Origin: Nitrospinota bacterium
GTDB lineage: Bacteria > Nitrospinota_A > UBA7883 > JACRGQ01
DNA: 64,000 nucleotides
Reading direction: 5' to 3'
Assembly (NCBI GenBank): GCA_016200345.1
Contig: JACQEX010000072.1
Location: 7,233-71,232, forward strand
Every line of letters begins with the position of its first letter. The stretch's first letter is position 1. The notes beneath the pieces were generated by a model. That model ran no database searches. It was not told the DNA's origin and was given only the letters and a program-made list of their open reading frames with translations. The position numbers were made by a program, and so were the translations under genes. Positions 14,953-32,903 of the stretch are shown piece by piece.

Positions 14953-16302
14953 ATGAGATACATACCTCTAACCCCCGAGGACAGGAAAACAATGCTGTCC
15001 TCGATAGGGGCCGCCTCCGTGGAGTCGCTTTTCTCGCACATCCGGGATGAAATACGGTTCAAGGGGAAATTCTCCATTCCAACCGCCATGTCCGAGCAGG
15101 AGGTCATGCGGTTTGCTTCGGAGCTTGCCGCGCAAAACTCACCAGCGGCGTCGGCTCCGTGCTTTCTCGGCGCCGGGGCGTACAATCATTTCGTCCCTTC
15201 CGCGGTGGACCAGTTAATAATGAGGAGCGAGTTCTACACCTCCTACACCCCGTACCAGCCGGAGATAAGCCAGGGGAACCTGCAGGCCATTTACGAGTAC
15301 CAAAGCTACGTCTGCTCACTCTTCAACATGGAGGTCGCAAACGCCTCGATGTACGACGGCGCAAGCGCGCTGGCGGAGGCGGTGCTGATGGCGTGCCGCA
15401 TCACAGGAAAAAACGAGGTAGTGATTTCCGACCTGGTGCACCCGAGGTGGCGAAAAACCGTCGCGACCTACGTCTTAAACAGGGGGACGAACATAATTCA
15501 AACCGAGGACCATCCGACCGGGAAAACCGACCCTGAGCGTCTTCTGAAGGCAATCACCCAAAACACGTCGGCCGTCGTGGTGCAATCGCCGAACTTCTTT
15601 GGCAACGTGGAGGATTGGGACGCCGTCGGCAAGGTCTGCCGCGAAAAGGGGGTTTTGTTCATCGCCTGCACCGCGGAGGCGATGTCGCTCGGCCTGCTTC
15701 GTCCCGCCGGTGATTTCGGCGCGGACATCGTCGTCGGCGAGGGGCAGTCGCTCGGCCTCGGCCTTAACTTCGGCGGCCCGTACCTCGGGATGTTCGCGAC
15801 TCGCGAGAAGCATCTTCGGCAGACGCCGGGGCGCATTTGCGGGCGCACGACGGACAAGGACGGCAAAAAGGGTTTTGTCCTCACCATGTCCACCCGCGAA
15901 CAACACATAAGGCGCGAAAAGGCCACGTCGAACATCTGCTCAAACCAGGCGTTGTGCGCGCTCACCACGACGATTTATCTGACCCTCATGGGAAAAGGCG
16001 GTTTTTCGCAGACGGCAAAAAATTGCCATTACGCCGCGCTGGCCCTTAAACAAAAAATTTCTTCCGTCGGGAACGGCGCGCGGAACAGCTTCGACCTTCC
16101 GTTCTTCAACGAGTTTTTGGCCGACCTCCCCGTTTCGGCGGACGAGCTGAACAAACGCCTCGCGAAGAAAGGGGCGGTGGGCGGCTACGACGTCTCAAGG
16201 GATTATCCGAAGATGGAAAATAAAATTTTGCTCGCCGCCACGGAGCTTACGACCCCAGCGGAGATAGACCTTATGGTGAAAACGCTGGGGGAGGGGAAAT
16301 AG
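14953..16302 (+). CDS. gcvPA: glycine dehydrogenase (decarboxylating) subunit 1
   Basis: 449 aa N-terminal half of P-protein (split form). Order gcvT-H-PA-PB. Confidence 0.9.
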   Translation: MRYIPLTPEDRKTMLSSIGAASVESLFSHIRDEIRFKGKFSIPTAMSEQEVMRFASELAAQNSPAASAPCFLGAGAYNHFVPSAVDQLIMRSEFYTSYTPYQPEISQGNLQAIYEYQSYVCSLFNMEVANASMYDGASALAEAVLMACRITGKNEVVISDLVHPRWRKTVATYVLNRGTNIIQTEDHPTGKTDPERLLKAITQNTSAVVVQSPNFFGNVEDWDAVGKVCREKGVLFIACTAEAMSLGLLRPAGDFGADIVVGEGQSLGLGLNFGGPYLGMFATREKHLRQTPGRICGRTTDKDGKKGFVLTMSTREQHIRREKATSNICSNQALCALTTTIYLTLMGKGGFSQTAKNCHYAALALKQKISSVGNGARNSFDLPFFNEFLADLPVSADELNKRLAKKGAVGGYDVSRDYPKMENKILLAATELTTPAEIDLMVKTLGEGK

Positions 16303-17805
16303 ATGGGCGGCGCGCAATCAAGGAATATTTTGGGAAAGCCGTACGCGAGGGGCATCGTCTTCAACGAGCCGCTCATATTTGAGCGAAGCCGGGCCGGACG
16401 CAACGGGTGCGACGTCGCAAAATCCCCGTTTGAGCAAAAGGAAATTTCCGCCGGTTTTGCAAAGGGAACGCTGAGGGAGGATTTTACGGGGTTCGTGGAG
16501 GTGAGCGAACCATCCGCCGTGCGCCATTTCACCCGGCTGTCGCAATGGAACTACGGGGTGGACTCCAATTTCTACCCGCTCGGCTCGTGCACGATGAAAT
16601 ACAACCCGAAGGTCAACGAGGCTGTCGCAAGGCTCGCCGGTTTCACCGGCCTCCACCCACTTCAGGACGAGGCTACGGCGCAGGGGGCGCTGAGGGTTAT
16701 TTACGAGTTGGAAAAATATCTCTGCGACATAGTGGGGATGCACTCGGCCTCGCTTCAACCGGCGGCGGGGGCGCAGGGGGAGCTTACGGGACTCATGCTC
16801 ATCCACGCCTACCTAAAGGACAAGGGGAACGCCAGAAAAAAAGTGATACTACCCGACTCGTCCCACGGCACAAACCCGGCCAGCGCCGCCTTGTGCGAGT
16901 ACTCGACCGTGCCGCTGGCAAGCGGCACGGACGGTCTTATTGATTGCTCAGCGTTGGAAAAATTGATGGACGAGGAGACCGCGGCCCTGATGGTCACAAA
17001 CCCGAACACGCTCGGGATGTTCGAAAAAAACATAAAAAGGGTCTGCGAGATAGTCCACGCCAAAGGGGGGCTGGTGTATGCGGACGGAGCGAACCTGAAC
17101 GCAATTTTGGGCAAGACCCGGTTCGGCGACATGGGGGTGGACGTCTGCCACATGAACCTGCACAAGACCTTCTCCACTCCGCACGGCGGCGGCGGCCCCG
17201 GCTCCGGCCCGGTGCTCGCCAAGGATTTTCTGGCGCCGTACATGCCCGCCCCGCGCGTGGTGCTGGCAGACGGACGCTACAAATTGGAGCACAATCCGCC
17301 GAAAAGCGTCGGAGCGTTAAACGCCTTTTATGGCAACTTCGGCGTCTACCTTAGGGCGTACGTTTATCTGCTATCCGTCGGCGGCGAGGGGCTGGGCGAC
17401 ATCTCCGACGCGGCGGTGCTGAACGCCAACTATATTTTGTCCAGATTAAAGGGGCATTACCACGTCCCGTACGACGGGCCGTGCATGCACGAGTGCGTCC
17501 TTTCGGACAAGTTCCAAAAAGACGCGCACGTCTCGACGCTCGACATAGCAAAATCGCTCATTGACAGGGGCTTCCACCCACCGACGATTTATTTCCCGCT
17601 TATCGTCAAGGGGGCGATGATGATAGAGCCGACCGAGTCCGAGTCGCTCGAAACCATGGACACCTTCGTGGACGCGATGGTGGACATCGCGGAGGTGGCG
17701 AAAACCCATCCGCTCTCCCTCGCCGAGGCGCCGGTTTTGGCGAAGATGCGTCGGCTGGACGAGACGCAGGCCGTGCGCAACCCCGACCTCCGCCACAAAC
17801 CCTGA
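16303..17805 (+). CDS. gcvPB: glycine dehydrogenase (decarboxylating) subunit 2 (PLP-binding)
   Basis: 500 aa C-terminal half of P-protein with PLP-lysine region (CHMNLHKTFSTPHGGGGPG). Confidence 0.9.
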   Translation: MGGAQSRNILGKPYARGIVFNEPLIFERSRAGRNGCDVAKSPFEQKEISAGFAKGTLREDFTGFVEVSEPSAVRHFTRLSQWNYGVDSNFYPLGSCTMKYNPKVNEAVARLAGFTGLHPLQDEATAQGALRVIYELEKYLCDIVGMHSASLQPAAGAQGELTGLMLIHAYLKDKGNARKKVILPDSSHGTNPASAALCEYSTVPLASGTDGLIDCSALEKLMDEETAALMVTNPNTLGMFEKNIKRVCEIVHAKGGLVYADGANLNAILGKTRFGDMGVDVCHMNLHKTFSTPHGGGGPGSGPVLAKDFLAPYMPAPRVVLADGRYKLEHNPPKSVGALNAFYGNFGVYLRAYVYLLSVGGEGLGDISDAAVLNANYILSRLKGHYHVPYDGPCMHECVLSDKFQKDAHVSTLDIAKSLIDRGFHPPTIYFPLIVKGAMMIEPTESESLETMDTFVDAMVDIAEVAKTHPLSLAEAPVLAKMRRLDETQAVRNPDLRHKP

Positions 17806-19798: not shown

Positions 19799-20845
19799 TT
19801 ATGATGTCAACCAGTCGAGAAATTTTTTCTCGTCCCGCACTCTCGCCTCGACCGACAAAATATGGAAACGGTTTTTAAGCGCGTCCGGCACCCGAACCAA
19901 GTCCTTCCTCGTCGTAAGCAAAATCTCGCCGTCAGGAACCAAGTTCGCCGCATCGCGTATCTCGGTCTCATTGTACCGGTGGTGGTCCGCAAATACAAAA
20001 TGCCGCGCCACCGTTGCGCCAAGTTTTTTCACGCTCTCCGCGAATTGGACAGGCGACCCAAGCCCGCTCAAGAGCGCGACGTTTTTCCCCATGAGGGAGC
20101 TTAACGGCAAGAACGAGCCGTCGGGGGCGGTTAGGTTTGCCGGTTCGACGTCACACAAAAACAGCGGGACGTCCTTTTTCGCATAGCCAATTATCTCCTC
20201 CCTAATCGCATTAAGAAGTTCGTCGGAAACAAAATTTGCGCGAGTTATTACGACGCAGTCCGCGCGGGCGATTGAGGAGAGCGGCTCCCGCAACGTCCCC
20301 GCCGGCAAAAGGCGTTTGCCACCAAACGGGTCGAGCGCGTCCGTCAAAAGGATGTTTTTGTCCCTGTGCGCTGAGAGGTGCGAAAATGCGTCGTCCAACA
20401 CGACCGTTTTTGCGCCAAGCTTCACCGCCTTCCCAATCCCCAAATTTCTATTTGGCGAGCAGATGACAGGCGTCCCTTTTAGCTCGCCTGCGGTGACCAT
20501 CGCCTCGTCCCCGGCCTCCGGATATTCGGCCAAAAGTTTATTTCCGTCGGAGACAATTTGCACAGGCTCCTTGGATGTTCTACCATAGCCTCTGCTGACC
20601 ACCGCGACTTTGCCGCCGAGCATTTTTACGACCATTACGACCACCGGCGTTTTTCCGGTGCCGCCGGCGGTGATGTTGCCGACGCTGATTACTTTTACCC
20701 CCGCGGTTTTTTGCGCGCGCGGAAAACCGAGGGAGTAGGCAAAAAGCCTTAGGCGAACCGCCGCGCCGTAGAGGATGGAGAGGGGGATGAAGAAAAATCC
20801 CGCCAAGCCTTTGGAGGTCGGGCGAATTTTGAGGAGATCACTCAT
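19799..20845 (-). CDS. lpxK: tetraacyldisaccharide 4'-kinase
   Basis: Walker A ISVGNITAGGTGKTP. 348 aa, typical LpxK. Confidence 0.88.
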   Translation of the reverse strand: MSDLLKIRPTSKGLAGFFFIPLSILYGAAVRLRLFAYSLGFPRAQKTAGVKVISVGNITAGGTGKTPVVVMVVKMLGGKVAVVSRGYGRTSKEPVQIVSDGNKLLAEYPEAGDEAMVTAGELKGTPVICSPNRNLGIGKAVKLGAKTVVLDDAFSHLSAHRDKNILLTDALDPFGGKRLLPAGTLREPLSSIARADCVVITRANFVSDELLNAIREEIIGYAKKDVPLFLCDVEPANLTAPDGSFLPLSSLMGKNVALLSGLGSPVQFAESVKKLGATVARHFVFADHHRYNETEIRDAANLVPDGEILLTTRKDLVRVPDALKNRFHILSVEARVRDEKKFLDWLTS

Positions 20846-21098
20846 GTCCGAGCATTTCCCTTATCGCGGGCGGAACGAAAACCTCTTCCAGATTCAGCGT
20901 TTTTAGCGCGTCAAGCGCGGTTTGAATCCGTCCGTCGTCCCCTAATCTTTCGTCCACGATTAAATATTTTTTTCCGCCCATTTCGCAAAGCCCGCCCTTG
21001 ATTATTATGTCCTCGTCGTCGAGGTTTCGCAGTTCCACCAGCACTCCGCATCTTTCGAGTGTGTGCGCCAGTATTTCAAACGTAACCCCGCCTTCCAT
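20838..21098 (-). CDS. hypothetical small protein (86 aa) translationally coupled to lpxK
   Basis: ORF overlaps the lpxK start by 8 nt. No recognisable motif. Confidence 0.4.
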   Translation of the reverse strand: MEGGVTFEILAHTLERCGVLVELRNLDDEDIIIKGGLCEMGGKKYLIVDERLGDDGRIQTALDALKTLNLEEVFVPPAIREMLGHE

Positions 21099-21165
21099 GC
21101 CTAAAGATTCTACCTCACCCGGAACAATCCCTAACGGTGGTAATTCTTTTCTGATTTGATATCAT

Positions 21166-21474
21166 GTGTGTATGAATGGATTAAAAATTGACCTGCCGCT
21201 GAATAGCATCGCCGAAATATGTAAACGATACCAAGTGCGGGAGCTTTCCATCTTTGGCTCGGCAGTTCGCGAGGATTTCACCGCCAAAAGCGACGTGGAC
21301 TTTTTGGTCGAGTTCAAGCCGGAGGCCTCGATTGGCTTTCTTGAATTGGCCGGCATGAACATCGAGCTTTCGGAATTACTTGGCCGGCCGGTTGACCTTG
21401 TGTCCAAAAACGGGCTAAGCCCCGTTATTCGGGACGTGGTCTTGGAAAGTGCCAAGGTCTTCTATGCGTCGTGA
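21166..21474 (+). CDS. mntA: MntA-like minimal nucleotidyltransferase antitoxin
   Basis: GSAVREDFTAKSDVDFLVEF is the Pol-beta-like NTase signature (GS..x9-13..DxD). Confidence 0.8.
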   Translation: MCMNGLKIDLPLNSIAEICKRYQVRELSIFGSAVREDFTAKSDVDFLVEFKPEASIGFLELAGMNIELSELLGRPVDLVSKNGLSPVIRDVVLESAKVFYAS

Positions 21475-21808
21475 AAAGCTCTACCTTGTTGACATTGTTG
21501 ACGCCGCAAAAGCCATAAGTGAGTTCATATCCGGCGTAACTCTGGAGCAATTTTTAGGAAGCGACCAGTTAAAGAGCGCAGTGCTATATAAACTGGCAAT
21601 CATTGGCGAGGCCGCCTCTAAGATTTCCTAGGAATTTAAAGGCAAGTACCCGGATATTGACTGGGCCAGAATATCGGCCTTTCGCAACATTGCCGTTCAC
21701 GCATATTTCGCCGTGGACGTGGGCATAACATGGGTCGCCGCCACAAAGAACGCCCCAGCGCAAAAAGAAATGGTCGAACGGATAATGAAGACAGAATTCC
21801 ACGAATAA
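21464..21808 (+). pseudogene. hepT: HepT-like HEPN (DUF86) RNase toxin interrupted by an in-frame TAG (21629-21631)
   Basis: The N-terminal half (MRREKLYLVDIVDAAKAISEFISG...) ends at an amber codon. The same frame continues with EFKGKYPDIDWARISAFRNIAVHAYFAVD..., carrying the HEPN Rx4HxY motif (RNIAVHAY), to a TAA at 21806-21808. Confidence 0.7.
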
Positions 21809-22021
21809 TTGTGAGCCAACGTGTGATTAATCTCATCCGGGGCTTTACGCGGATTAGTGTCGGGTTTTGCGGCGGAGGGATATTATCAGGTGATAGATGA
21901 ACAACCCGGACAAGACCTTGTAAGGGACTAAAATCAATGCCGGTGGTTTGAAATAGGTGCCTTCAAATTTAATTTCTAAAGGGTTCATGAAGAGTAAAAA
22001 GTTGTTTGCTTCGCGGCGGGT

Positions 22022-22267
22022 TTATTTCTCGCCATAATAAATGTTCCCTGGCAAATGACTATAGACAGGGTTGGTATGTTCAAGTGTCCCAGCATCAAAA
22101 GATGCGGAAACTGGGTCGGAACCATCCCCAAAATGGGTTTCCTTCATGGGAGAAAAGGCTGGCTTCCCATCATGGACACCCAGTGCTGGTTCCCCCCTAA
22201 TCAGGCGGACTACCACCACCAATCCCAGCAAGCCAAGCAAACCGAAAAAAACTATATCGCCTTCCAT
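22022..22267 (-). CDS. small membrane-anchored protein (81 aa) downstream of hicAB
   Basis: Strong AAGGAG SD 5 nt before ATG 22267. N-terminal TM helix (IVFFGLLGLLGLVVVV), soluble C-terminal tail. Same strand as, and 45 nt after, hicB. Confidence 0.55.
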   Translation of the reverse strand: MEGDIVFFGLLGLLGLVVVVRLIRGEPALGVHDGKPAFSPMKETHFGDGSDPVSASFDAGTLEHTNPVYSHLPGNIYYGEK

Positions 22268-22312
22268 AAAAACTCCTTCTACCGCTTTTTATACACCCAA
22301 TTCCTAGCCAGG

Positions 22313-22810
22313 TCAAACCAAAGCATGTCTTCCGGCGGAAACCTTCCTACCTTTCGACCGTGCGCGTTTGCCGCCGAAATCGTCTCCAAAGATTATTGCC
22401 AACGGCTTTTCCGCGTTTGGATTGGCCGCTTTAAGCAATTGAGCCACCAGATGCAGTGTCGGTTCCCTTTTCCCCTGCTCGTAGGCGGCGTAGGCGTTCA
22501 CAAAGGCGCTTCCCATATTAGCCGCGGCCTGTTTAATGGTGACTTGGGCTATCTGCCGTTGTCGCCTAATAAGCAGGCCAAAAAAGGCCTTGGTGTCTTT
22601 ACTGCCTATATACACGTTTTCCCCTTCGCCCCGGCGGATCTCTAAGAACAGGACACGTTTTTCATGCAATGCCATAAGTTCAACAGCGTCCTTCAACATG
22701 GCCATGGCGTCGTTATAATCCTTTCCCTGGGTGATTATGGCCAGTGCCTCGCATTCCGCAACTAATCCACACTCCTTTCCGGCCTTAAAAATTCGTCCTT
22801 CAATCCACAT
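22313..22810 (-). CDS. hicB: HicB-family antitoxin with C-terminal HTH (XRE-like) domain
   Basis: N-terminal HicB/UPF0150-like fold (..GLVAECEALAIITQGKDYNDAMAMLKDAVELM..). C-terminal HTH (RQRQIAQVTIKQAAANMGSAFVNAYAAYEQGKREPTL). AGGAGG SD. Confidence 0.75.
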   Translation of the reverse strand: MWIEGRIFKAGKECGLVAECEALAIITQGKDYNDAMAMLKDAVELMALHEKRVLFLEIRRGEGENVYIGSKDTKAFFGLLIRRQRQIAQVTIKQAAANMGSAFVNAYAAYEQGKREPTLHLVAQLLKAANPNAEKPLAIIFGDDFGGKRARSKGRKVSAGRHALV

Positions 22811-22820
22811 TATGCCCTCC

Positions 22821-23000
22821 TTACTTCTTATATTTTTCCACTTGCTTTAGGATTCCCAACGCGGTGAATTCCTTTAATTCCGCATGGCGCGGAACATACA
22901 CGGAGTTCACGCCGTCCGTCCAAACCTCGTGGTTGCCACCCTCTCTTGTGAGATACCATCCCATCCTCGACAGCCTTTTGGTCAGTTCCGTTTTCTTCAT
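22821..23000 (-). CDS. hicA: HicA-family mRNA interferase toxin (59 aa)
   Basis: Not in the ORF track (<60 aa). The minus strand encodes MKKTELTKRLSRMGWYLTREGGNHEVWTDGVNSVYVPRHAELKEF..., the YcfA/HicA signature (GW...GSHH-like core). It lies 10 nt upstream of hicB. Confidence 0.75.
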   Translation of the reverse strand: MKKTELTKRLSRMGWYLTREGGNHEVWTDGVNSVYVPRHAELKEFTALGILKQVEKYKK

Positions 23001-23227
23001 AGCAAAATATTACAACTTTAGTTGTAAGTTGTCAAGCATAAATATTCCGTACGGGCAAATTTAAAATGGAAGGTTCCTATTATGAAAAGACGAACCCTTC
23101 AGCCGGTTTAATAAACTTCGCTGGAGGTGAAAAAATACTCCCACTCCCTCCTGTGACATGGAACGATTAATCATTGAAACGAGTGTATCAACAAATGATA
23201 CCGAAAGGAAGAGTGACGGTGCGGTTA

Positions 23228-23800
23228 TTAATTCTGGGAGCGGAGGTGGGCCAATAGCTCGTCTTTGGTGAAAATGGCCTCGACTGCGGGGACTTCGGCC
23301 AGAAGGCGTTCGCGTCCACCTTCCTGCCTGTCAACCAAAGCAACAACCGCAAGCACCTTCAGGCCAAAATCGCGCGCGCTCTTGATTGCCGTTAAGGCGG
23401 AGTCGCCGGTCGTTATCACGTCCTCCAAAATAACCACTGCGTCCCCGGCTGACACGTCCCCCTCAACCGGGCTTTTGGTGCCGTGCTCTTTCGTCACTTT
23501 GCGGACGACGAACGCCTTTATCGGCGAGCCGCGCCGGAAACTTTCCCCCGCCACCGCAATGGCTATTGGGTCGGCGCCGAGCGTAAGCCCCCCGACCGCC
23601 GTGGGGGAATATTTTTTTACCGCGTCGAACACCACGGAGCCGATGAGGTTAATCCCCTCCGCGTCGTATGCGGTTTTTTTGCAATTGACGTAGTAGGAGG
23701 ACATTTTTCCCGAGGCGAGCTTGAAGGTAGGCGTTTCGGAAAACATGAACGATTTTTCAACCAGTAGGGAAAGGAGCCCGTTGCGTGCGTATTGGCCCAC
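23228..23800 (-). CDS. pyrE: orotate phosphoribosyltransferase
   Basis: PRPP-binding motif VVILEDVITTGDS. Start uncertain: GTG 23800 gives 190 aa, ATG 23746 gives 172 aa. The longer track ORF has a non-PyrE, Arg-rich N-terminus. Confidence 0.8.
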   Translation of the reverse strand: MGQYARNGLLSLLVEKSFMFSETPTFKLASGKMSSYYVNCKKTAYDAEGINLIGSVVFDAVKKYSPTAVGGLTLGADPIAIAVAGESFRRGSPIKAFVVRKVTKEHGTKSPVEGDVSAGDAVVILEDVITTGDSALTAIKSARDFGLKVLAVVALVDRQEGGRERLLAEVPAVEAIFTKDELLAHLRSQN

Positions 23801-23805
23801 GGGGG

Positions 23806-24462
23806 TCAGTCCTTTATCGGGTTTTTGGCGATGGACTTTTCGGCGTCCTTTATCAGGGTGTTTATCCTCGCCGTCTTCGTTTTGAGCGAGCCTCGGCATA
23901 CGACCAGCCGAGCGGTGACGTTCATGATTGTCTCGACCTCCACAAGGCCGTTGGCCTTCAGCGTGTTGCCTGTGGAGACCAGATCCACGATTCTTTCGCA
24001 AAGGCCGACCAGCGGCGCGATTTCGATTGAGCCGTAAAGTTTGATGACCTCCACGTGTATCCCCTGGTCGCGGAACCATTGCGTGGCGAGGTTTGTGAAC
24101 TTTGTCGCCACGCGAAGGTGCGTCCACCTGCGCGGGTCGTCGTGCTCCTTAAGCGATGCCGGTTCGGCTATGACGAGTCTGCACGCGCCGAAGCCGAGGT
24201 CGAGCATTTCGTAGATGGATTTGTCCTGTTCCTCAAGCTGGTCTTTGCCGGAGACGCCGAGGTCGGCGGCGCCGTTTTCCACGTAGACCGGTATGTCGGT
24301 GTCCCTTACTATTATAGCCCTCGAGCGCGAGGCGGGATCCTCGAAAATCAATTTTCTGTTGTCCTCAAGCGCGCCGCTAAAATCCATCCCTAGCCGCTTA
24401 AAAAGCTCGACCGAGGGCCTCAAGTTTCTGCCGCGCGGGATGGCGACGGTTAGTTGTGACAT
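23806..24462 (-). CDS. hisG: ATP phosphoribosyltransferase (short form)
   Basis: MSQLTVAIPRGR...; short-form HisG, 218 aa. Confidence 0.85.
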   Translation of the reverse strand: MSQLTVAIPRGRNLRPSVELFKRLGMDFSGALEDNRKLIFEDPASRSRAIIVRDTDIPVYVENGAADLGVSGKDQLEEQDKSIYEMLDLGFGACRLVIAEPASLKEHDDPRRWTHLRVATKFTNLATQWFRDQGIHVEVIKLYGSIEIAPLVGLCERIVDLVSTGNTLKANGLVEVETIMNVTARLVVCRGSLKTKTARINTLIKDAEKSIAKNPIKD

Positions 24463-24569
24463 TTTGTTATTTCCATGATTGTAAGAAAATACCATTCAAT
24501 CGCCCCCCAAGCAAATAAATGTGCGCGCCTTGACTTGACCCTAACGCCATAAAAGAGCGAAAATGGGTC

Positions 24570-24773
24570 ATGTCCAACAGGTTTGAAATAATTGCGTCGG
24601 ACGGCGCGGTTGTCCACGGGGTTAAGGTCGGCCTCGGCAGATGGCTGGTGACGGTTCGATATAAGACGGCGACAAAGAAAATAGAGGTCGGGGGCTCCAA
24701 TCTCGTTGCGATTCTAAAGTGGCTTGGGCAGGATGAACACTTCATACGGCGTATTCTTGAAAACGGAGAATGA
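24570..24773 (+). CDS. hypothetical small protein (67 aa)
   Basis: ORF whose stop overlaps the next small ORF start (ATGA). No known motif. An alternative antisense ORF exists. Confidence 0.35.
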   Translation: MSNRFEIIASDGAVVHGVKVGLGRWLVTVRYKTATKKIEVGGSNLVAILKWLGQDEHFIRRILENGE

Positions 24774-25006
24774 AAGGGCTGAAGATGAAAAACAAGGGCG
24801 GCGATAAAATAATTCGAGGAACGACGAAAAGAACCGGCGGGGAGATATTTGCCATGATTGACCAATTTTCGGACATGGAGCCGGTTTTTGTAGAGAGGAG
24901 TTTGGCGAGGAAGATTGAACAAGGCGCCAAGCGCCTCAAAGTTTCGACGGGCCAGTATGCCTCGGCCTTGTTGGACGCGCAGTTGAACTCCAAGACGAAC
25001 AGATAA
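24770..25006 (+). CDS. hypothetical small protein (78 aa), possible ribbon-helix-helix-like
   Basis: Translationally coupled to the upstream small ORF; basic N-terminus. Speculative. Confidence 0.35.
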   Translation: MKGLKMKNKGGDKIIRGTTKRTGGEIFAMIDQFSDMEPVFVERSLARKIEQGAKRLKVSTGQYASALLDAQLNSKTNR

Positions 25007-25017
25007 CGGAGGCGACA

Positions 25018-25647
25018 ATGGGTGCTACGGTTTTTCACGGCGGGCTGTCCAAAAAAATGCTGGACGCCGCGACGAAGGCGTTGCGCGACGGGGAACTGAT
25101 AATCTACCCGACCGACACGATATACGGCATCGGTTGCGACATGAGAAACGGCAAGGCCCTCGAAAAACTCAACCGCCTAAAGAACAGGCCGAGCAACAAG
25201 CCGTTCAGCTTCATCTGCAACAACATAAGCGAGGCGGCCCAGTACGCCCGCCTTTCCAACGCCGCGCACCGCGTGATGAAGCGTTTTCTTCCCGGCCCGT
25301 ACACCTTCATCCTCCCCGTCGGGAGCGGTGTGCCAAAAAAAATGACATCCGCCGAGCACACGGTCGGCATACGAATCCCGAACCATTTCATAACGCTCGA
25401 GCTGGCGAAGGCGTTCGGCTCCCCGATTATCACCACATCCGTGAACCTCTCCGGCGACGCCCCGGTCTGCGCAATCGGCGACCTGCCGCCGGAGTTCACC
25501 TCGGCTGTCTCCGTAATAATCGACGGCGGCCCGCTTGAGTACGAGCCTTCGACGATAATTAATTTTGTTGGCGAGGCCCCCGTCGTGGAGAGGGAGGGGA
25601 GGGGCTTCGCTGAGATAAAACCGTTTTTAGAAACCCACCAAAGTTAA
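25018..25647 (+). CDS. tsaC: L-threonylcarbamoyladenylate synthase (YrdC/Sua5 family)
   Basis: YPTDTIYGIGCD and later ..TSVNLSG.. motifs of the YrdC fold. 209 aa. Confidence 0.85.
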   Translation: MGATVFHGGLSKKMLDAATKALRDGELIIYPTDTIYGIGCDMRNGKALEKLNRLKNRPSNKPFSFICNNISEAAQYARLSNAAHRVMKRFLPGPYTFILPVGSGVPKKMTSAEHTVGIRIPNHFITLELAKAFGSPIITTSVNLSGDAPVCAIGDLPPEFTSAVSVIIDGGPLEYEPSTIINFVGEAPVVEREGRGFAEIKPFLETHQS

Positions 25648-27192
25648 ATGGCCGCCGACGAACCCGTATTTAAGTACAAGTGGTGGGCCGCGGGGGACGT
25701 AAACGCCTTTTTCGGCCTGATGCTGGACAACCTCACCGGCCTCGTTATTTTGTCATCCATACTCACCGGCATTTTTAAGATGCCCGCCGACGTGGTTTTG
25801 CTAAAAATGGTTCCCGGCACCGCGTTGGGCGTGATGCTGGGCGACCTCGCGTACACGTACATGGCCTTTCAACTCGCCAAAAAAGAGCGGAGGCAGGACG
25901 TTTGCGCCATGCCGCTTGGGATAGACGCGATAGCGTTGTTCGGCCTCTCTCTCGGCGTGGTGGGGCCGGCGTTCGCCGTTACGAAAGACGCCGACAAGGC
26001 GTGGGCCGTCGGCATGGCGGTCCTCGTCGTGATGGGCGCCGTCAAGGTCGTCACCGCGTTCTTCGGCGAGGCGGTGCGGCGCAACGTGCCCCGCGCGGCG
26101 TTGCTCGGCTCGCTTGCCGCGCTCGCGGTAGTGTTCATCGCGTACCTTCCGTTTCTAAAAATAATCTCCGACCCAATGGCGGGGCTCGTTTCGCTCGGCG
26201 TGATACTTCTTACGCTCACCGCGCGGGTAAAGCTCCCGCTAAAAATTCCAGGCGCACTCGCCGGGGTCGGCCTTGGTACGCTCGTCTATTACGCGGCGGA
26301 CGCCTTCGGCCTTTCGGAGGGGAGGCACGTCGCGGAGGCGGGCTTTGCATTCGCCTTCCCGAACCCGACGTTGCATTTTATGGACGGACTCTCGATGGGG
26401 CTAAACTACCTTCCGCTCTCCATTCCCATAGCCATCTCCAGCATCATCGGCGGGATAGACAACACCGAAAGCGCGGCCGTCGCCGGCGACAAGTACGACA
26501 CGCGGGACATACTGCTTGTGGAGGGGGTCGCCACGCTGGTGGCCGGCGTTTGCGGCGGGGTCATTCAAAACACGCCGTACATCGGCCACCCGGCGTACAA
26601 GGCGATGGGGGGAAGGGCGGCCTACACGCTGGCGTCGGGCCTGTTCATCGGCCTCGGCGCGTTGGTCGGCCTGACCGGGTATTTGATAAGCGTCCTTCCG
26701 GAGTCGGTCATGGTGCCGATACTCGTCTTCATCGGTCTAGAGGTCTGTTCGCAGGCTTATGGGGAGTCGGACAAAAGCCACCTTGCGGCTGTTTCCATCT
26801 GTTTCGTGCCGACGATTGCGAACCTCGTGTTCATCCAATACAACTCGCTGATGGGGGCCGCGGGAATCGGGCTTGGGAAGCTCGGGCCCGATTTTCAGGA
26901 GACCTATCGTTCGGTGATGCTATTGGGAAACGGCTTTGTGCTGACCGCGATGATATGGGCGGCGATGATAGCGTTCTTGACGGACGATAATTTTGCCAGC
27001 GCGGCTTGGGTGGCGTTTATCGCCTCGGTCTGCGCCATGACGGGGTTTATACACTCCCCATTTCCGGACGGGCGGCTTTTTGCGCCGTGGGGGGTGCCGG
27101 CGACGACCTATAAAATCGCCGTCGGGTATTTGTTAATGGGCGGAATTTACCTTACAATGTTTTTCCTACGAAGACCGAAAACAGATTTATAG
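25648..27192 (+). CDS. polytopic membrane permease (NCS2/AzgA-like nucleobase or solute transporter family)
   Basis: About 12-14 TM helices, G/A-rich. Family assignment tentative. Confidence 0.55.
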   Translation: MAADEPVFKYKWWAAGDVNAFFGLMLDNLTGLVILSSILTGIFKMPADVVLLKMVPGTALGVMLGDLAYTYMAFQLAKKERRQDVCAMPLGIDAIALFGLSLGVVGPAFAVTKDADKAWAVGMAVLVVMGAVKVVTAFFGEAVRRNVPRAALLGSLAALAVVFIAYLPFLKIISDPMAGLVSLGVILLTLTARVKLPLKIPGALAGVGLGTLVYYAADAFGLSEGRHVAEAGFAFAFPNPTLHFMDGLSMGLNYLPLSIPIAISSIIGGIDNTESAAVAGDKYDTRDILLVEGVATLVAGVCGGVIQNTPYIGHPAYKAMGGRAAYTLASGLFIGLGALVGLTGYLISVLPESVMVPILVFIGLEVCSQAYGESDKSHLAAVSICFVPTIANLVFIQYNSLMGAAGIGLGKLGPDFQETYRSVMLLGNGFVLTAMIWAAMIAFLTDDNFASAAWVAFIASVCAMTGFIHSPFPDGRLFAPWGVPATTYKIAVGYLLMGGIYLTMFFLRRPKTDL

Positions 27193-27203
27193 AAAGGTGC
27201 CAG

Positions 27204-28952
27204 ATGGACGTTAATTCGATGAGACATTCCGCCGCCCACGTTATGGCGCAGGCGATTCGCGAGATCCACCCGAACGCGCAGTTTGCGTTCGGCCCGGAAA
27301 CGGAGAACGGCTTTTACTACGACGTTAAAATTCCCGGCGGGGCGATACACAACGACGACCTCGGGAAAATCGAAAAGGCCATGTTGCGCATCGCAAAGGG
27401 GAAGCACCCCTTCGAAAGGACCGAGGTGGGGCGCGACGAGGCGCTTAAGCGTTTTGCCGACCAGGAGTTTAAGGTGAGGGCGTTGAACGACCTTTTGAAG
27501 GACGAGGCCACCGTTTCGCTCTACACGCAGAACGGCTTCACCGACCTCTGCAAGGGGCCGCACGTGGAGCACACGGGGCAGATAGGCGCGTTTAGCATAG
27601 ATAGAATCGCGGGGGCGTACTGGCTGGGCGACTCCAAAAACGAGCCTCTGCAAAGGGTATACGGGCTTTGCTTCCGCACGATGGAGGAGTTGAAGGAATA
27701 CAAGGCGATGATGGAGGAGGCCCGAAAAAGGGATCACCGCGAGGTGGGGAAAAAGCTCGACCTCTTTTCCTTCCACGAGGAGGGGCCGGGCTTTGTTTTC
27801 TGGCACCCGAAGGGGCTTACGCTTTTCAACACGCTAATAAGCTTCATCCGCGCCGAGAACGAAAAACGGGGCGCGCACGAGATTAAGACGCCGGAAATTT
27901 TAAGCGTGGACCTTTGGCACAGGTCGGGCCACTACGACAATTTTAGGGAGAGCATGTACTTCACCTCGGCGGAGGAAAAGCCCTTCGCAGTGAAGCCGAT
28001 GAACTGCCCCGGCTCGATATTGGTCTACAAGGACGGGCTTCACTCCTTCCGCGATTTGCCGCTGAGGCTCATGGAGATGGGGCACGTCCACAGGTTCGAG
28101 CTTTCCGGCGTTTTGCACGGCCTGTTCCGACTGCGCGCGTTCACGCAGGACGACGGGCACATCTACTGCGCGCAGGAGCAGGTGGAGGGGGAGATATCGG
28201 CCTTCGTGGACTACGTCTACTCCGTGTACGGCATATTCGGGTTCGAGGAGATAACGGTGTTCGTCTCCACCCGCCCGGAGCATTCGATGGGCTCGGACGA
28301 GGTGTGGGAGAGCGCGACGAACGCGCTGAAGTCCGCGTTGGACAAGAAGGGCGTGCAATACAAGATTAAGGAAGGGGAGGGGGCCTTCTACGGCCCCAAG
28401 ATTGAGTTCAACGTAAAGGACTGCATAAAGCGAAATTGGCAGTTGGGGACCATACAGGTGGATTTCTCGATGCCCGAGAGGTTCGATTTGGAATACGTTG
28501 CGAGCGACGGCACGCGGAAAAGGCCGGTGTTGTTGCACCGTGCCGTGCTCGGTTCCCTCGAAAGATTTTTGGCGATATACATGGAGCAGGTCGCGGGGGC
28601 CTTCCCGCCGTGGCTCGCGCCGGTTCAGGCGGTGATTTTGTCCGTTACCGACAACCTTAACGATTACGCATTGGAGGTCTTGGCGGCGATAAAGGCCGGC
28701 GGGGTCAGGGGGGAGTTGGACGTCTCCGGCGAAAGACTGAACAAAAAAATACGCAACGCTCAAATCGCCAAAATTCCGTACATGATTATTCTCGGCGACA
28801 AAGAGGCGGCCTCGAAGACCGTCTCCGTGCGCCTGCGCTCCGGCGAGAACGTGAACGAAATATCGGTTGACGATTTCATCAAGATAGTGGCGGAGAGAAC
28901 CGCTACGAAGAGTCCGGCCCTCTGGCCGACGCCGGTCGCGCCCGCCGCTTGA
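27204..28952 (+). CDS. thrS: threonine--tRNA ligase lacking the N-terminal TGS domain
   Basis: Begins at the N2 editing-domain motif RHSAAHVMAQA (E. coli ThrRS ~residue 73). Class II motifs and anticodon-binding domain present. 582 aa. Confidence 0.9.
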   Translation: MDVNSMRHSAAHVMAQAIREIHPNAQFAFGPETENGFYYDVKIPGGAIHNDDLGKIEKAMLRIAKGKHPFERTEVGRDEALKRFADQEFKVRALNDLLKDEATVSLYTQNGFTDLCKGPHVEHTGQIGAFSIDRIAGAYWLGDSKNEPLQRVYGLCFRTMEELKEYKAMMEEARKRDHREVGKKLDLFSFHEEGPGFVFWHPKGLTLFNTLISFIRAENEKRGAHEIKTPEILSVDLWHRSGHYDNFRESMYFTSAEEKPFAVKPMNCPGSILVYKDGLHSFRDLPLRLMEMGHVHRFELSGVLHGLFRLRAFTQDDGHIYCAQEQVEGEISAFVDYVYSVYGIFGFEEITVFVSTRPEHSMGSDEVWESATNALKSALDKKGVQYKIKEGEGAFYGPKIEFNVKDCIKRNWQLGTIQVDFSMPERFDLEYVASDGTRKRPVLLHRAVLGSLERFLAIYMEQVAGAFPPWLAPVQAVILSVTDNLNDYALEVLAAIKAGGVRGELDVSGERLNKKIRNAQIAKIPYMIILGDKEAASKTVSVRLRSGENVNEISVDDFIKIVAERTATKSPALWPTPVAPAA

Positions 28953-29010
28953 ACGGTAGGCGCGGACTTTAGTCTGCGCTAGTATTGGCGCTCCGCGCCC
29001 ACCGGTGCGC

Positions 29011-29283
29011 TTATTTCAGTATGGAGGGGAGGTCGAGCCCGTTGTCGCGCGCGGCCCTGCCCACGGCGACCTTGCAACCCATGACGGCGACCGCGCCGTA
29101 TTTGTCGTGCAACGTTTGAACCAGCGCCTCAAGTTCCTTTATGGTGTAGGCTCCGTTGGAAAGGAGGCCCTCCCCGTTCACCTTCATCTTCATGTCGGAA
29201 AGAATGTCCATCATTCTTTCTTTTCCAAGAATGCCGAACTCCCGTTTGATAACGGTTTCAATCAGGTCTTTATAAGTCGCCAT
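29011..29283 (-). CDS. hypothetical small protein (90 aa) downstream of MBL-fold di-iron-like gene
   Basis: ORF 35 nt downstream of the ODP-like gene on the same strand. No secure family. Confidence 0.45.
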   Translation of the reverse strand: MATYKDLIETVIKREFGILGKERMMDILSDMKMKVNGEGLLSNGAYTIKELEALVQTLHDKYGAVAVMGCKVAVGRAARDNGLDLPSILK

Positions 29284-29318
29284 CGTCGTGTTATTTACCT
29301 TTTTGCCTTGTTGTGTTT

Positions 29319-30059
29319 TTATTCAAAGTAAAATTCGCCGCATTCGCAGTTCTTAAGAATTTCGATGTAGTTCTTCACGTCCTTTTTGGGGATTATGGAG
29401 CCGTGTTGCGGCGCAATCATGTCTATCTCAAATTTGTCCAGCTTGTTGATGGTGTGCCTTAGTATGTGGTTGGAGGGCATGTAGTTCTCGTGCCACGCCT
29501 TCATCGCCTCGGCGTAATGCTCGTTTGCGTAAAGGCTCCAGTCGAAGCTCAGTCCGCCGAAGATGTCGCCCGAAAAAAGAATCTTGGATTTTTCGTCGTA
29601 GGTCATGAACGCCGCCGGGAAATGGAGGAACGGCGCAAAAATGAACCTAAGCGTCCGACCGGACTTGAGCGTAAGCTTCCAGTCGTTCGCGTCCACCCGG
29701 TAAAAATTTGAGATGGTGCCGTAGTAGGCGATGAGGACGGAGGCGCGGGTGTGCGTGCAGATGTCGAAAGCGCCGCCGATGCCGGTCACAAGCTCCTCGA
29801 ACCTCGGTATGGCGGAGCAAAGATCCGGGTCTTGGTGCGTTACGACCACGTGCTTGATTTTGTTCAGGGTGGTCACCTGCAGGGTCTTTTCAAGAACCAT
29901 CGGAAAGTGCGGGACGCTCCCCGGGTCGAAGAAGACGGTTTCGTCCCCGTCGTTTAGTATGTACGGGTTGCACCGGAACCCCGCGGTCGGGTCGTCGAAG
30001 CCGACCCAATATATGCCGTCGGCTATCTCGACTGCCTTCGTCAAATCCGATTTTTTCAT
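29319..30059 (-). CDS. metallo-beta-lactamase-fold protein resembling the di-iron domain of flavodiiron proteins (ODP-like, no flavodoxin domain)
   Basis: MBL fold with VVVTHQDPDL metal motif region. 246 aa, matching stand-alone FprA N-terminal domain proteins. Confidence 0.6.
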   Translation of the reverse strand: MKKSDLTKAVEIADGIYWVGFDDPTAGFRCNPYILNDGDETVFFDPGSVPHFPMVLEKTLQVTTLNKIKHVVVTHQDPDLCSAIPRFEELVTGIGGAFDICTHTRASVLIAYYGTISNFYRVDANDWKLTLKSGRTLRFIFAPFLHFPAAFMTYDEKSKILFSGDIFGGLSFDWSLYANEHYAEAMKAWHENYMPSNHILRHTINKLDKFEIDMIAPQHGSIIPKKDVKNYIEILKNCECGEFYFE

Positions 30060-30150
30060 GTTAGAAAAACCTCCTGTTCGGGCGGGTAATCATTCCGCCC
30101 ATTATCGTAATATAGCCCAGCCGACGCCGCAGACAATTTTTTGCGGAAAC

Positions 30151-30399
30151 CTATTGCGCGGAATCGCCGCGTCCGCCCTTAACGTCCCAATAAAGCGTCC
30201 GCACGGAAAAAAATATTATTGCGCCGAACGCGACCAGCAGAATTAAGGCGTACGGGGATCGCGCCACCTTTTCAAGGTTGTTGTTCAGCAGTATCGCCGC
30301 CGCGTACCCGATTCCGACGAACGCCGCCGAAATCGGGAAAATAAGCGACTCGGCCTTTCTCCAAGCGGAGGAGTTTTCGTCCTTCTTCTCGTCCGCCAT
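30151..30399 (-). CDS. small 2-TM membrane protein (82 aa) directly after radical SAM gene stop
   Basis: Its ATG abuts the TAG of the upstream radical SAM gene (TAGATG). Two hydrophobic helices. Confidence 0.5.
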   Translation of the reverse strand: MADEKKDENSSAWRKAESLIFPISAAFVGIGYAAAILLNNNLEKVARSPYALILLVAFGAIIFFSVRTLYWDVKGGRGDSAQ

Positions 30400-31611
30400 C
30401 TAGCCCTTTGCGGCGTCCGTGATTTTTACCGGCTCGTAGATGCAGTACGGCTCCTCTTCCATGTAGTCGCCGTTTTTTTCGTAGAAGGCGCGCGCACGGC
30501 ACCCCTCGCAGACTTTTTTGTACTCGCAAATTCCGCATTTGCCCTTCAGCGCGTCCGGGTTTCGCAGGTTGGCGAAAACCTCGGAGTAGTCCCACACCTC
30601 TTTGAAGGACTGTTTGTGTATGTTGCCCGCCTCAACGGGAAGGTATCCGCACGGGAACACCTGCCCCTTGTGGGATATGAAGCAGATGGCCGAGCCGGCA
30701 AGGCACCCCTTGGTCATGGCCGCCATTCCGTGCGTTTTCGGGGTTATTTGGATTCCCTCCTCCTTGGCCTTTTGGCGCATTATTCGGAAATAATGCGGGG
30801 CGCACGTCGCCTTCGTCTCTATTTTCTTCTCCTTGCTTATCTCGTAGAACCAGGAGAGCGTCTCCTCGTACACCTGCGGGTCCAGCATCTGGTCCTCGGC
30901 TATCGAGACGCCGCAACCGACCGGCACGAGCATGAAGATGTGCAGGGCCACCGCGCCCAGGTCTATGGCGTTTTGGTAGATTTCCTTAACCTGGTGGATG
31001 TTGTGCTTTGCGATGGTGCAGTTTATCTGCACCGGCATTCCTATCTTTTGAAGCTCCTTCATTCCCCTTATCGCCATGTCGTAGGAGCCCACGAGCTTTC
31101 TCAGCTTGTCGTGCGTCTCGCCTATGCCGTCCAGCGAAATGGAGACGCGCTGAATTCCGGAATCAACGATTTTTTGCGCGACCTCGGCGTTTATCAGTGT
31201 GCCGTTGGTCGCAAGCGCAACGGTAAGCCCCTTGCCCTTGGCGTATTTTGCTATGTCGTATATGTCCGGCCTGTAGAGCGGCTCGCCGCCGGAAAGAACC
31301 AATATGGGGCTTCCGACGTCGAGCAGTCCGTCAATCATTTTGCACGATTCCTCGAAGGTGAGGTCGTCCTTCATCAGCGTATTGGCCACGTCGAGGCGCC
31401 TGCAATGGGCGCACTCCAGGTTGCAACCGGCGGTCGTCTCCCAAAAGACCAGCCTTAGCTGGTTGGCCTTGTTCATCATGTACGAGTGCGATTTGGCGTG
31501 CGCGTCGGGCGCGTCCTTAATGTCCTTGAACGCCTCCTTTATGGTGCCTGGGTGCCCGCCTGGATGTCCCCCCGGATGTCCGCCGGGATGGCCTTTCATT
31601 TTGTCGCTCAT
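30400..31611 (-). CDS. NirJ/AhbC/AhbD-family radical SAM/SPASM enzyme (alternative heme biosynthesis) with N-terminal (GHPGG)x3-4 His-rich tail
   Basis: CNLECAHC radical SAM CxxxCxxC. C-terminal SPASM cysteines (CGICEYKKVCEGCRARAF...PYC). N-terminus MSDKMKGHPGGHPGGHPGGHPG...DAHAKSH. Confidence 0.8.
   Translation of the reverse strand: MSDKMKGHPGGHPGGHPGGHPGTIKEAFKDIKDAPDAHAKSHSYMMNKANQLRLVFWETTAGCNLECAHCRRLDVANTLMKDDLTFEESCKMIDGLLDVGSPILVLSGGEPLYRPDIYDIAKYAKGKGLTVALATNGTLINAEVAQKIVDSGIQRVSISLDGIGETHDKLRKLVGSYDMAIRGMKELQKIGMPVQINCTIAKHNIHQVKEIYQNAIDLGAVALHIFMLVPVGCGVSIAEDQMLDPQVYEETLSWFYEISKEKKIETKATCAPHYFRIMRQKAKEEGIQITPKTHGMAAMTKGCLAGSAICFISHKGQVFPCGYLPVEAGNIHKQSFKEVWDYSEVFANLRNPDALKGKCGICEYKKVCEGCRARAFYEKNGDYMEEEPYCIYEPVKITDAAKG
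31546..31593 (-). repeat. 15-nt tandem repeat encoding (G-H-P-G-G)x3.2 at the N-terminus of the radical SAM gene
   Basis: Plus strand shows ...ggatgtcc(c/g)ccggg... units. Translated on the minus strand as GHPGGHPGGHPGGHPG. Confidence 0.8.
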
Positions 31612-32903
31612 ATTGCCGTCACCGGCGCCTTCTTCTGCAACAGGTGGGCCGGCACGGCGAACTCCTCTCCCTTTGCCTTTAGCGCGGCAAGCTTGTCCTG
31701 GGTCAGCCCTATCTCCTCGTCCGTCAGGTAGCAGGCGGGGTCTGGCGCGAACGGGTCGCTAAAAATCGCGTCCGCCCTAACGCGCATGCTACCGCCGCAG
31801 GCGTTGAGCCATTTGCAGACGGAGCACCTTCCCTTAAGGTGGTCGAGCCTGTTTTTCAGCCCCTTCATAAGCGGGTCGCTTTGGTCGAGCCAAATCTCGC
31901 TGAACGGGCGCTCCTTTACGTTTCCGAAGGAGTAATACTGCCAGAACTGGTCGGCGTGGACGTTGCCGTAGAAATCAATGTTGGAAAAGCTCACGCCGGA
32001 GGAGTACCGCCCGCCGCCGTTCCATTCGAGCATCTTTAGCGTTTCGGCGGCCTTTTCCGGATTTTTCTCCGCCTGCTTCATATATAGGTATACGCCGTCC
32101 ACGTGGTTGTCCACCGTCAGGATGTCCTTTTGAAGGCCGCGCGCGTGGAAATCCGCCGAGCGCTCCAAAATAATGTCCATGGCGTGGCGCGACTCCTCGT
32201 GGGTAAGATCCTCGTTGCTAAGGCCCCTTCCCCTGCCGGAATAGACAAGGTGGTAAAAACAGGCGCGGTTTATCTCCTCGCGCTCGATGAAGTCAAAAAT
32301 TTCGTTTAGGTTTTCGTAGTTGTGGCGCGTGAGCGTTAGCCTAAGGCCGACGCGCTGGTCCACCGCCACGCAGTTTTTAAAGGCCGACATCGCCTTTGCG
32401 AAGGCCCCCGCCTTTCCGCGAAATTTGTCGTTAATCTCCCCGATTCCGTCGAGCGAGATGCCGACGTACACGAAGCCGCTTTCCTTTATTCTCTTGGCCG
32501 TGGCCGGGTCAATCAGCGTCCCGTTGGTCGAGAGGGTGCTTCTTAGCCCCAGCGACCTCGCGTGCGCCACAAGCTCGAACACGTCCGGCCTAATAAGCGG
32601 TTCTCCGCCCGAAAAGAGAAGTGCGGGGCTTTTGAACTGCGCGACGTCGGCGATGACCTCCTTGGCCTGCGCCGTTGTAAGCTCGCCGTCGTATGCTTTG
32701 GCCTCGGAGTCGCTGTAGCAATGGATGCAACTAAGGTTGCAGGTGCGGGTTATGTTCCAAGACACGACCGGCCTACGCTCGCCGGACGCCTTGGGCACGC
32801 TGTGGGCGTGGGGCATTTTTGACATATGCACGGACTGTTTGCCGTACCGTATGGCGTCCCCTTCGTTTTCGATTCCGCAATATAGTTTAGAAATTCCAAT
32901 CAT
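31608..32903 (-). CDS. NirJ/AhbC/AhbD-family radical SAM/SPASM enzyme (alternative heme biosynthesis)
   Basis: CNLSCIHC radical SAM motif, SPASM C-terminus (CSVCKWLNACGGSMRVRA). 4-nt ATGA overlap with the downstream paralog. GGAG SD 8 nt before ATG 32903; alternative internal ATG at 32825. Confidence 0.8.
   Translation of the reverse strand: MIGISKLYCGIENEGDAIRYGKQSVHMSKMPHAHSVPKASGERRPVVSWNITRTCNLSCIHCYSDSEAKAYDGELTTAQAKEVIADVAQFKSPALLFSGGEPLIRPDVFELVAHARSLGLRSTLSTNGTLIDPATAKRIKESGFVYVGISLDGIGEINDKFRGKAGAFAKAMSAFKNCVAVDQRVGLRLTLTRHNYENLNEIFDFIEREEINRACFYHLVYSGRGRGLSNEDLTHEESRHAMDIILERSADFHARGLQKDILTVDNHVDGVYLYMKQAEKNPEKAAETLKMLEWNGGGRYSSGVSFSNIDFYGNVHADQFWQYYSFGNVKERPFSEIWLDQSDPLMKGLKNRLDHLKGRCSVCKWLNACGGSMRVRADAIFSDPFAPDPACYLTDEEIGLTQDKLAALKAKGEEFAVPAHLLQKKAPVTAI

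Follow-up and report, generated by a model that had tools for sequence, protein, structure and literature searches.

The window analysed here, a 64,000-nucleotide stretch of a groundwater Nitrospinota metagenome-assembled genome (MAG; NCBI proteins MBI3794585-599, locus tags of the form HY280_..., related MAG records being named 'NC_groundwater'), belongs to a contig of 91.9 kb and contains an MntA-HepT type of toxin-antitoxin pair in which the toxin reading frame is interrupted by an amber codon 5′ of its RNase motif. The question raised by this locus is whether the interruption denotes a disarmed toxin gene, a sequencing error, or a site of stop codon readthrough or suppression, which were the three options set out in a preliminary description of the DNA. 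The features that bear on the question are as follows.

21172-21474, + strand: mntA, minimal nucleotidyltransferase antitoxin of 100 amino acids, intact; PF01909
21464-21808, + strand: hepT, full frame across the stop; 55 sense codons, TAG, 58 sense codons, TAA
21464-21631, + strand: hepT 5′ part, 55 codons and the premature TAG (21629-21631), from translation
21569-21586, + strand: six-codon synonymous patch in hepT codons 36-41, present in the window haplotype only and separable from the TAG
21629, + strand: causal substitution, AAG (Lys56) to TAG, from base-by-base comparison with Logan contigs
21632-21808, + strand: hepT 3′ part, 58 codons and TAA, now untranslated; carries R74-x4-H79-x-Y81

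The mntA gene is located upstream of hepT and the two overlap by 11 nt, with the hepT ATG at 21464 and the mntA TGA at 21472-21474. The longest open reading frame for the nucleotidyltransferase spans 21166-21474 from a GTG start, and both the gene callers and NCBI choose the ATG at 21172. The initial reading of the antitoxin gene as intact held, as the frame is uninterrupted, but its start is probably at 21172 and not at 21166. The interruption of hepT is an in-frame TAG at codon 56, 18 codons 5′ of the RX4HXY motif. Translation reproduced the course of the frame that had been described after this codon, with 58 codons that include FRNIAVHAY and a closing TAA at 21806-21808. A 60-amino acid product from a GTG start at 21449 is not on record, and scans of 20500-23300 for promoters, terminators and repeats yielded nothing above shuffled expectation.

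Family assignments were made with Pfam and NCBIfam. MntA matched NTP_transf_2 (PF01909, E=4.9e-15) and PF18765 (E=9.8e-13), and the closest solved structure was 1WOT, a minimal nucleotidyltransferase (E=1.6e-9). Read from the translation, the GSX10DXD motif is exact (G29-S30-AVREDFTAKS-D41-V42-D43) and all catalytic residues are kept. HepT read across the stop matched the HepT-like family PF01934 over residues 13-107 (E=1.4e-21, 76.9 bits against a cutoff of 23.5 bits), a match that spans both sides of the stop. The NCBIfam scores were 50.2 bits for MntA_antitoxin and 27.1 bits for the HepT_toxin equivalog, each under the 60-bit cutoff. The RX4HXY motif of HepT, R74-NIAV-H79-A-Y81, is encoded at 21683-21706 and is untranslated in the window's allele; R74, H79, and Y81 did not vary among 101 aligned sequences. 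The definition of class I type VII HepT/MntA modules comprises GSX10DXD and RX4HXY in neighboring genes, with a HEPN toxin of PF01934 or PF08780 and an MNT protein of PF01909 encoded upstream of it, and MntA neutralizes HepT via AMPylation in which both motifs are involved (Yao et al., PMC7641770). Judged by this sequence definition, the mntA-hepT pair is a class I type VII module. RNase toxicity of HepT and AMPylation-based neutralization by MntA would be expected here from family membership and the literature on the family.

The intact form of HepT, which has lysine at position 56 and is described below, was modeled with AlphaFold2 (pLDDT 90.7). The predicted helices comprise residues 3-22, 27-32, 34-53, 56-61, 67-71, 73-83, which is the RX4HXY helix, and 86-112. 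The top Foldseek matches of the model were 7AE9, 7AE6, 7AE8, and 7BXO (TM 0.65-0.72), which confirmed that the intact allele is predicted to adopt the HEPN-toxin fold. The HEPN/MNT entries 7AE6, 7AE8, and 7AE9 were matched with a probability of about 1.0, TM values of 0.65-0.67 and 15-19% identity. The PDB titles of 7AE2, 7AE6, 7AE8, and 7AE9, which we take to be the HEPN/MNT proteins of Aphanizomenon flos-aquae, refer to AMPylated HEPN toxins in complex with MNT antitoxin, in agreement with AMPylation-based neutralization. A profile search of PDB sequences also matched HepT of Shewanella oneidensis (5YEP, 6M6U) over the catalytic helix. The type VII HepT/MntA system of that organism (SO_3166/SO_3165; 5YEP, 7BXO, 6M6U) resembles the pair in the window in having mntA upstream of hepT, in belonging to the same families (PF01909 and PF01934) with both GSX10DXD and RX4HXY, and in the helical HEPN fold (TM 0.71-0.72 between the AlphaFold2 model and 7BXO). 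However, identity in the structural alignment is only 16-17%, HepT here is 114 amino acids in length compared to about 133-139, and the allele in the window is cut short at codon 56 and hence would be neither an RNase nor a substrate for AMPylation. The pair as first recognized, with its amber codon preceding the motif for RNase activity, thus was borne out by translation, by the Pfam and NCBIfam searches, and by Foldseek.

In the model of the intact allele, residue 56 is placed directly after the helix of residues 34-53. The 55-residue product consists of N-terminal helices only and is without the catalytic helix of residues 73-83, the target tyrosine, and the C-terminal helix. As the RNase center and the AMPylation tyrosine both are lost, the truncated toxin is considered to be null. 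The option of a disarmed toxin is supported accordingly, the TAG cutting HepT to 55 residues, short of the RNase motif. Production of the C-terminal portion of HepT from an internal start was considered and rejected: the earliest canonical in-frame start that follows the TAG is a GTG at 21713, past the RNase motif, with none between the TAG and the motif, and an ATT at 21656 is without a convincing ribosome binding site on reading of the sequence. This rare ATT start is the one used in NCBI entry MBI3794589.1, a 50-amino acid 'DUF86 domain-containing protein' (21656-21808), and the locus is unflagged as a pseudogene in the record. The call is regarded as an annotation convenience and not as evidence of expression.

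Further copies of the locus were recovered through exact-protein look-ups in Logan and NCBI. The MntA protein was identical in four Logan contigs and in NCBI entry MBI3794588.1, and hepT is intact with AAG in three of these four contigs and carries TAG in the fourth. A homology search identified a 114-amino acid HepT (P0001) that is identical to the frame in the window except for lysine at position 56. Its gene is located on two Logan contigs, one of 22.8 kb from SRR12113411 and one of 5.9 kb from SRR12113410. These intact-allele contigs aligned gaplessly to positions 20660-31808 of the window (11,149 nt); identity was 99.9% and the mismatches numbered 12 and 11. The base at 21629 is A (AAG) in contigs L001 and L002, and T (TAG) in the window and in contig L003 of a separate Logan assembly (SRR12113413), in which the 55-amino acid truncated HepT also was called. 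After the TAG, every base of hepT in the window agrees with the intact allele. Lysine was the commonest residue in alignment column 56 (46 of 100 homologs, including the five closest), which otherwise is variable (K, A, R, S, and others). The comparison with orthologous hepT genes that had been proposed as a check therefore points to lysine, encoded by AAG in the nearest allele. As TAG is separated from AAG by a single A-to-T step and lysine predominates in the column, the TAG is read as the derived change. Furthermore, the lesion is viewed as very young, since the 3′ remainder of hepT is unchanged. A 36-mer around the TAG, with the variable base given as N, had no exact match in the GTDB representative genomes or JGI metagenomes.

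The window derives from the metagenome assembly of a mixed population, and its differences from the sister contigs occur in small clusters that may reflect strain mixing. Both points would accord with a sequencing or assembly artefact, in which case position 21629 would really be an A and hepT would be uninterrupted. Nevertheless, the same T is present in the independently assembled L003, which differs from the window at six positions in 21569-21586, 43-60 nt upstream of the TAG, and agrees at all six with the intact-allele contigs. Three haplotypes therefore are distinguished, of which two carry the TAG. Because the same TAG occurs on two different local haplotypes, a sequencing or assembly error is very unlikely; moreover, the change is a substitution and not a homopolymer indel. 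The window's MAG and L003 could have overlapping read sets as their source, yet the six differing sites are situated within 60 nt of the TAG. Thus, the error option raised initially is effectively excluded and an artefact remains an improbable account of the locus. By these comparisons, the TAG allele is genuine and derived, and it segregates alongside the intact allele within the population.

The six positions that distinguish the window from both L003 and the intact-allele contigs are synonymous differences in six consecutive codons (36-41). Seven of 12 differences over 11.1 kb are inside hepT (P about 2e-8). The patch resembles a short tract acquired by recombination from a divergent, unseen allele, or the product of strain mixing in assembly. 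Neither a donor for the patch nor another copy of hepT or mntA is present in the window. A paralog as the source, by gene conversion, was rejected on the basis that the window is without a donor and that the closest other hepT (74% identity) mismatches the patch. A second micro-cluster of the same type, comprising three synonymous third-position differences from the Logan contigs at 26130, 26133, and 26136, is found in codons 161-163 of a 514-amino acid ORF (25648-27192) for which there was no Pfam match. Separately, three independent Logan contigs from three runs start within 2 nt of one position, about 20658-20660, inside lpxK, suggesting that a junction immediately upstream is repeated or varies among the strains of the population.

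Overall, the TAG in hepT very probably reflects a recent nonsense mutation that abolished the function of a type VII toxin, and the resulting allele segregates alongside the intact one in the groundwater population. In the intact form, mntA and hepT would be translated from one operon as overlapping genes. HepT would act as a four-helix HEPN RNase that cleaves mRNA via the RX4H site, and the GSX10DXD center of MntA would add AMP to the tyrosine of RX4HXY and thereby neutralize HepT. A single A-to-T transversion in the strain to which the window belongs converted the AAG codon of Lys56 to amber, such that translation would end after 55 residues to leave a two-helix fragment and a null toxin, with mntA remaining intact. 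The intact and null alleles coexist in one groundwater metagenome series. There is good documentation of toxin pseudogenes that neighbor an intact antitoxin, examples being a parE pseudogene with ParD in Caulobacter and a YacB with a premature stop in Shigella (PMC7354431). The hepT allele shares with these cases a premature toxin stop and an apparently functional cognate antitoxin. In contrast, those systems are type II, whereas the module here is type VII and both of its alleles segregate in one natural population.

Loss of the toxin instead might have been selected, either with MntA kept as an anti-addiction (orphan) antitoxin or as an armed/disarmed polymorphism balanced by phages or plasmids. 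The coexistence of armed and disarmed alleles in sister samples and the retention of every catalytic residue in mntA are compatible with this scenario, and orphan antitoxins have been proposed to act in such a way, although it has yet to be demonstrated that this role is a widespread one (PMC7354431). However, one substitution with no further divergence provides no signal of selection in either direction. The lesion, being a single substitution with no other decay, is too young for antitoxin retention or decay to have become apparent, and the initial suggestion of an orphan antitoxin kept against incoming toxins is unsupported. It is simpler to assume that a chromosomal toxin was lost neutrally or with a slight benefit, and selected loss is deemed unlikely.

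The third option concerned translation across the TAG. In this scenario, a suppressor tRNA, pyrrolysine or leaky termination would deliver an attenuated dose of full-length HepT. The 58 codons after the TAG are perfectly intact and in frame. Low-level natural UAG readthrough exists in bacteria, and basal amber readthrough could produce traces of full-length toxin from the TAG allele. However, the intact 3′ frame is explained by the youth of the mutation, as the sister allele differs only at 21629. TAG also is a routine terminator in the window: the stops of 59 long, mutually non-overlapping ORFs are TAA (26), TGA (21), and TAG (12), so that the TAG share is ~20% and is not depleted. No tRNA was detected in the 64-kb window with ARAGORN, nor any Rfam family in the Rfam scan. 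A scan of GTDB representative genomes produced 80 related hepT loci, 78 of which have a GSX10DXD partner motif on the same strand. In-frame stops are present in five of the 80, at codons 26 (TAG), 37 (TAA), 95 (TAG), 100 (TAA), and 110 (TAA), but none is at column 56, where homologs have ordinary residues. Two of the five stops are 5′ of the catalytic motif, i.e., roughly 2-3% of relatives are likewise disarmed. The scattered positions fit sporadic decay and not a conserved recoding site. Functional readthrough or suppression consequently is unsupported and is highly improbable. An alternative genetic code or recoding was rejected on the frequency of TAG among the 59 ORFs and on the empty tRNA (window) and Rfam scans. 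Among the TAG-terminated ORFs is that at 14953-16302, taken as gcvPA, which is followed directly by the gcvPB ATG in the same frame (14953-17805). The gcvPB gene was assigned by Pfam and gcvPA was inferred from size and position. Readthrough at the gcvPA TAG would give a product like the single-chain P-protein found in other bacteria, which probably is a coincidence. Finally, it is very doubtful that the amber allele is maintained as a balanced polymorphism in an 'attenuated' state, whether through a rare readthrough trickle of HepT or through interference by the 55-residue fragment with the HepT/MntA complexes of related modules.

The module is flanked by chromosomal housekeeping genes, comprising two glycine cleavage P-protein subunit genes, ychF, lpxK, hisG, a Sua5/TsaC-family gene, and thrS. 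A gene for a HicA toxin (59 amino acids, PF07927, E=6e-9) is positioned about 0.5 kb downstream of hepT in a module on the - strand (22313-23000); its upstream partner encodes a 165-amino acid protein with an HTH domain (weak HTH_31 and MqsA-like matches). The hicA module and mntA-hepT form a small toxin-antitoxin islet between lpxK and a phosphoribosyltransferase/hisG pair. Further along the window, two adjacent radical SAM/SPASM proteins of 403 and 431 amino acids are encoded at 30400-32903 on the - strand, adjoined by an ODP-family metallo-beta-lactamase-fold gene (29319-30059); this group may form a cluster for peptide maturation or for a cofactor. Of the other hepT/mntA pairs, the closest (74% identity) is in Nitrospinota MAG JACRGR010000070.1 (L004 5096-6345, L005 1917-3166), at another chromosomal location beside coaBC and with a second, divergently oriented MNT gene adjoining. 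From the different location of the closest pair, it is concluded that the module is mobile within the phylum.

The mntA-hepT pair is an uncharacterized but typical member of a very abundant toxin-antitoxin family and the lesion is of an ordinary type. The TAG in hepT has no bearing on genetic-code variation and matters little beyond annotation, in which respect the public record hides the lesion by presenting MBI3794589.1 rather than a pseudogene. At this locus, armed and disarmed hepT alleles occur together in a natural population of groundwater Nitrospinota. It shows a toxin gene just as it becomes inactivated, and thereby offers a small, clean data point on the decay of chromosomal toxin-antitoxin modules.
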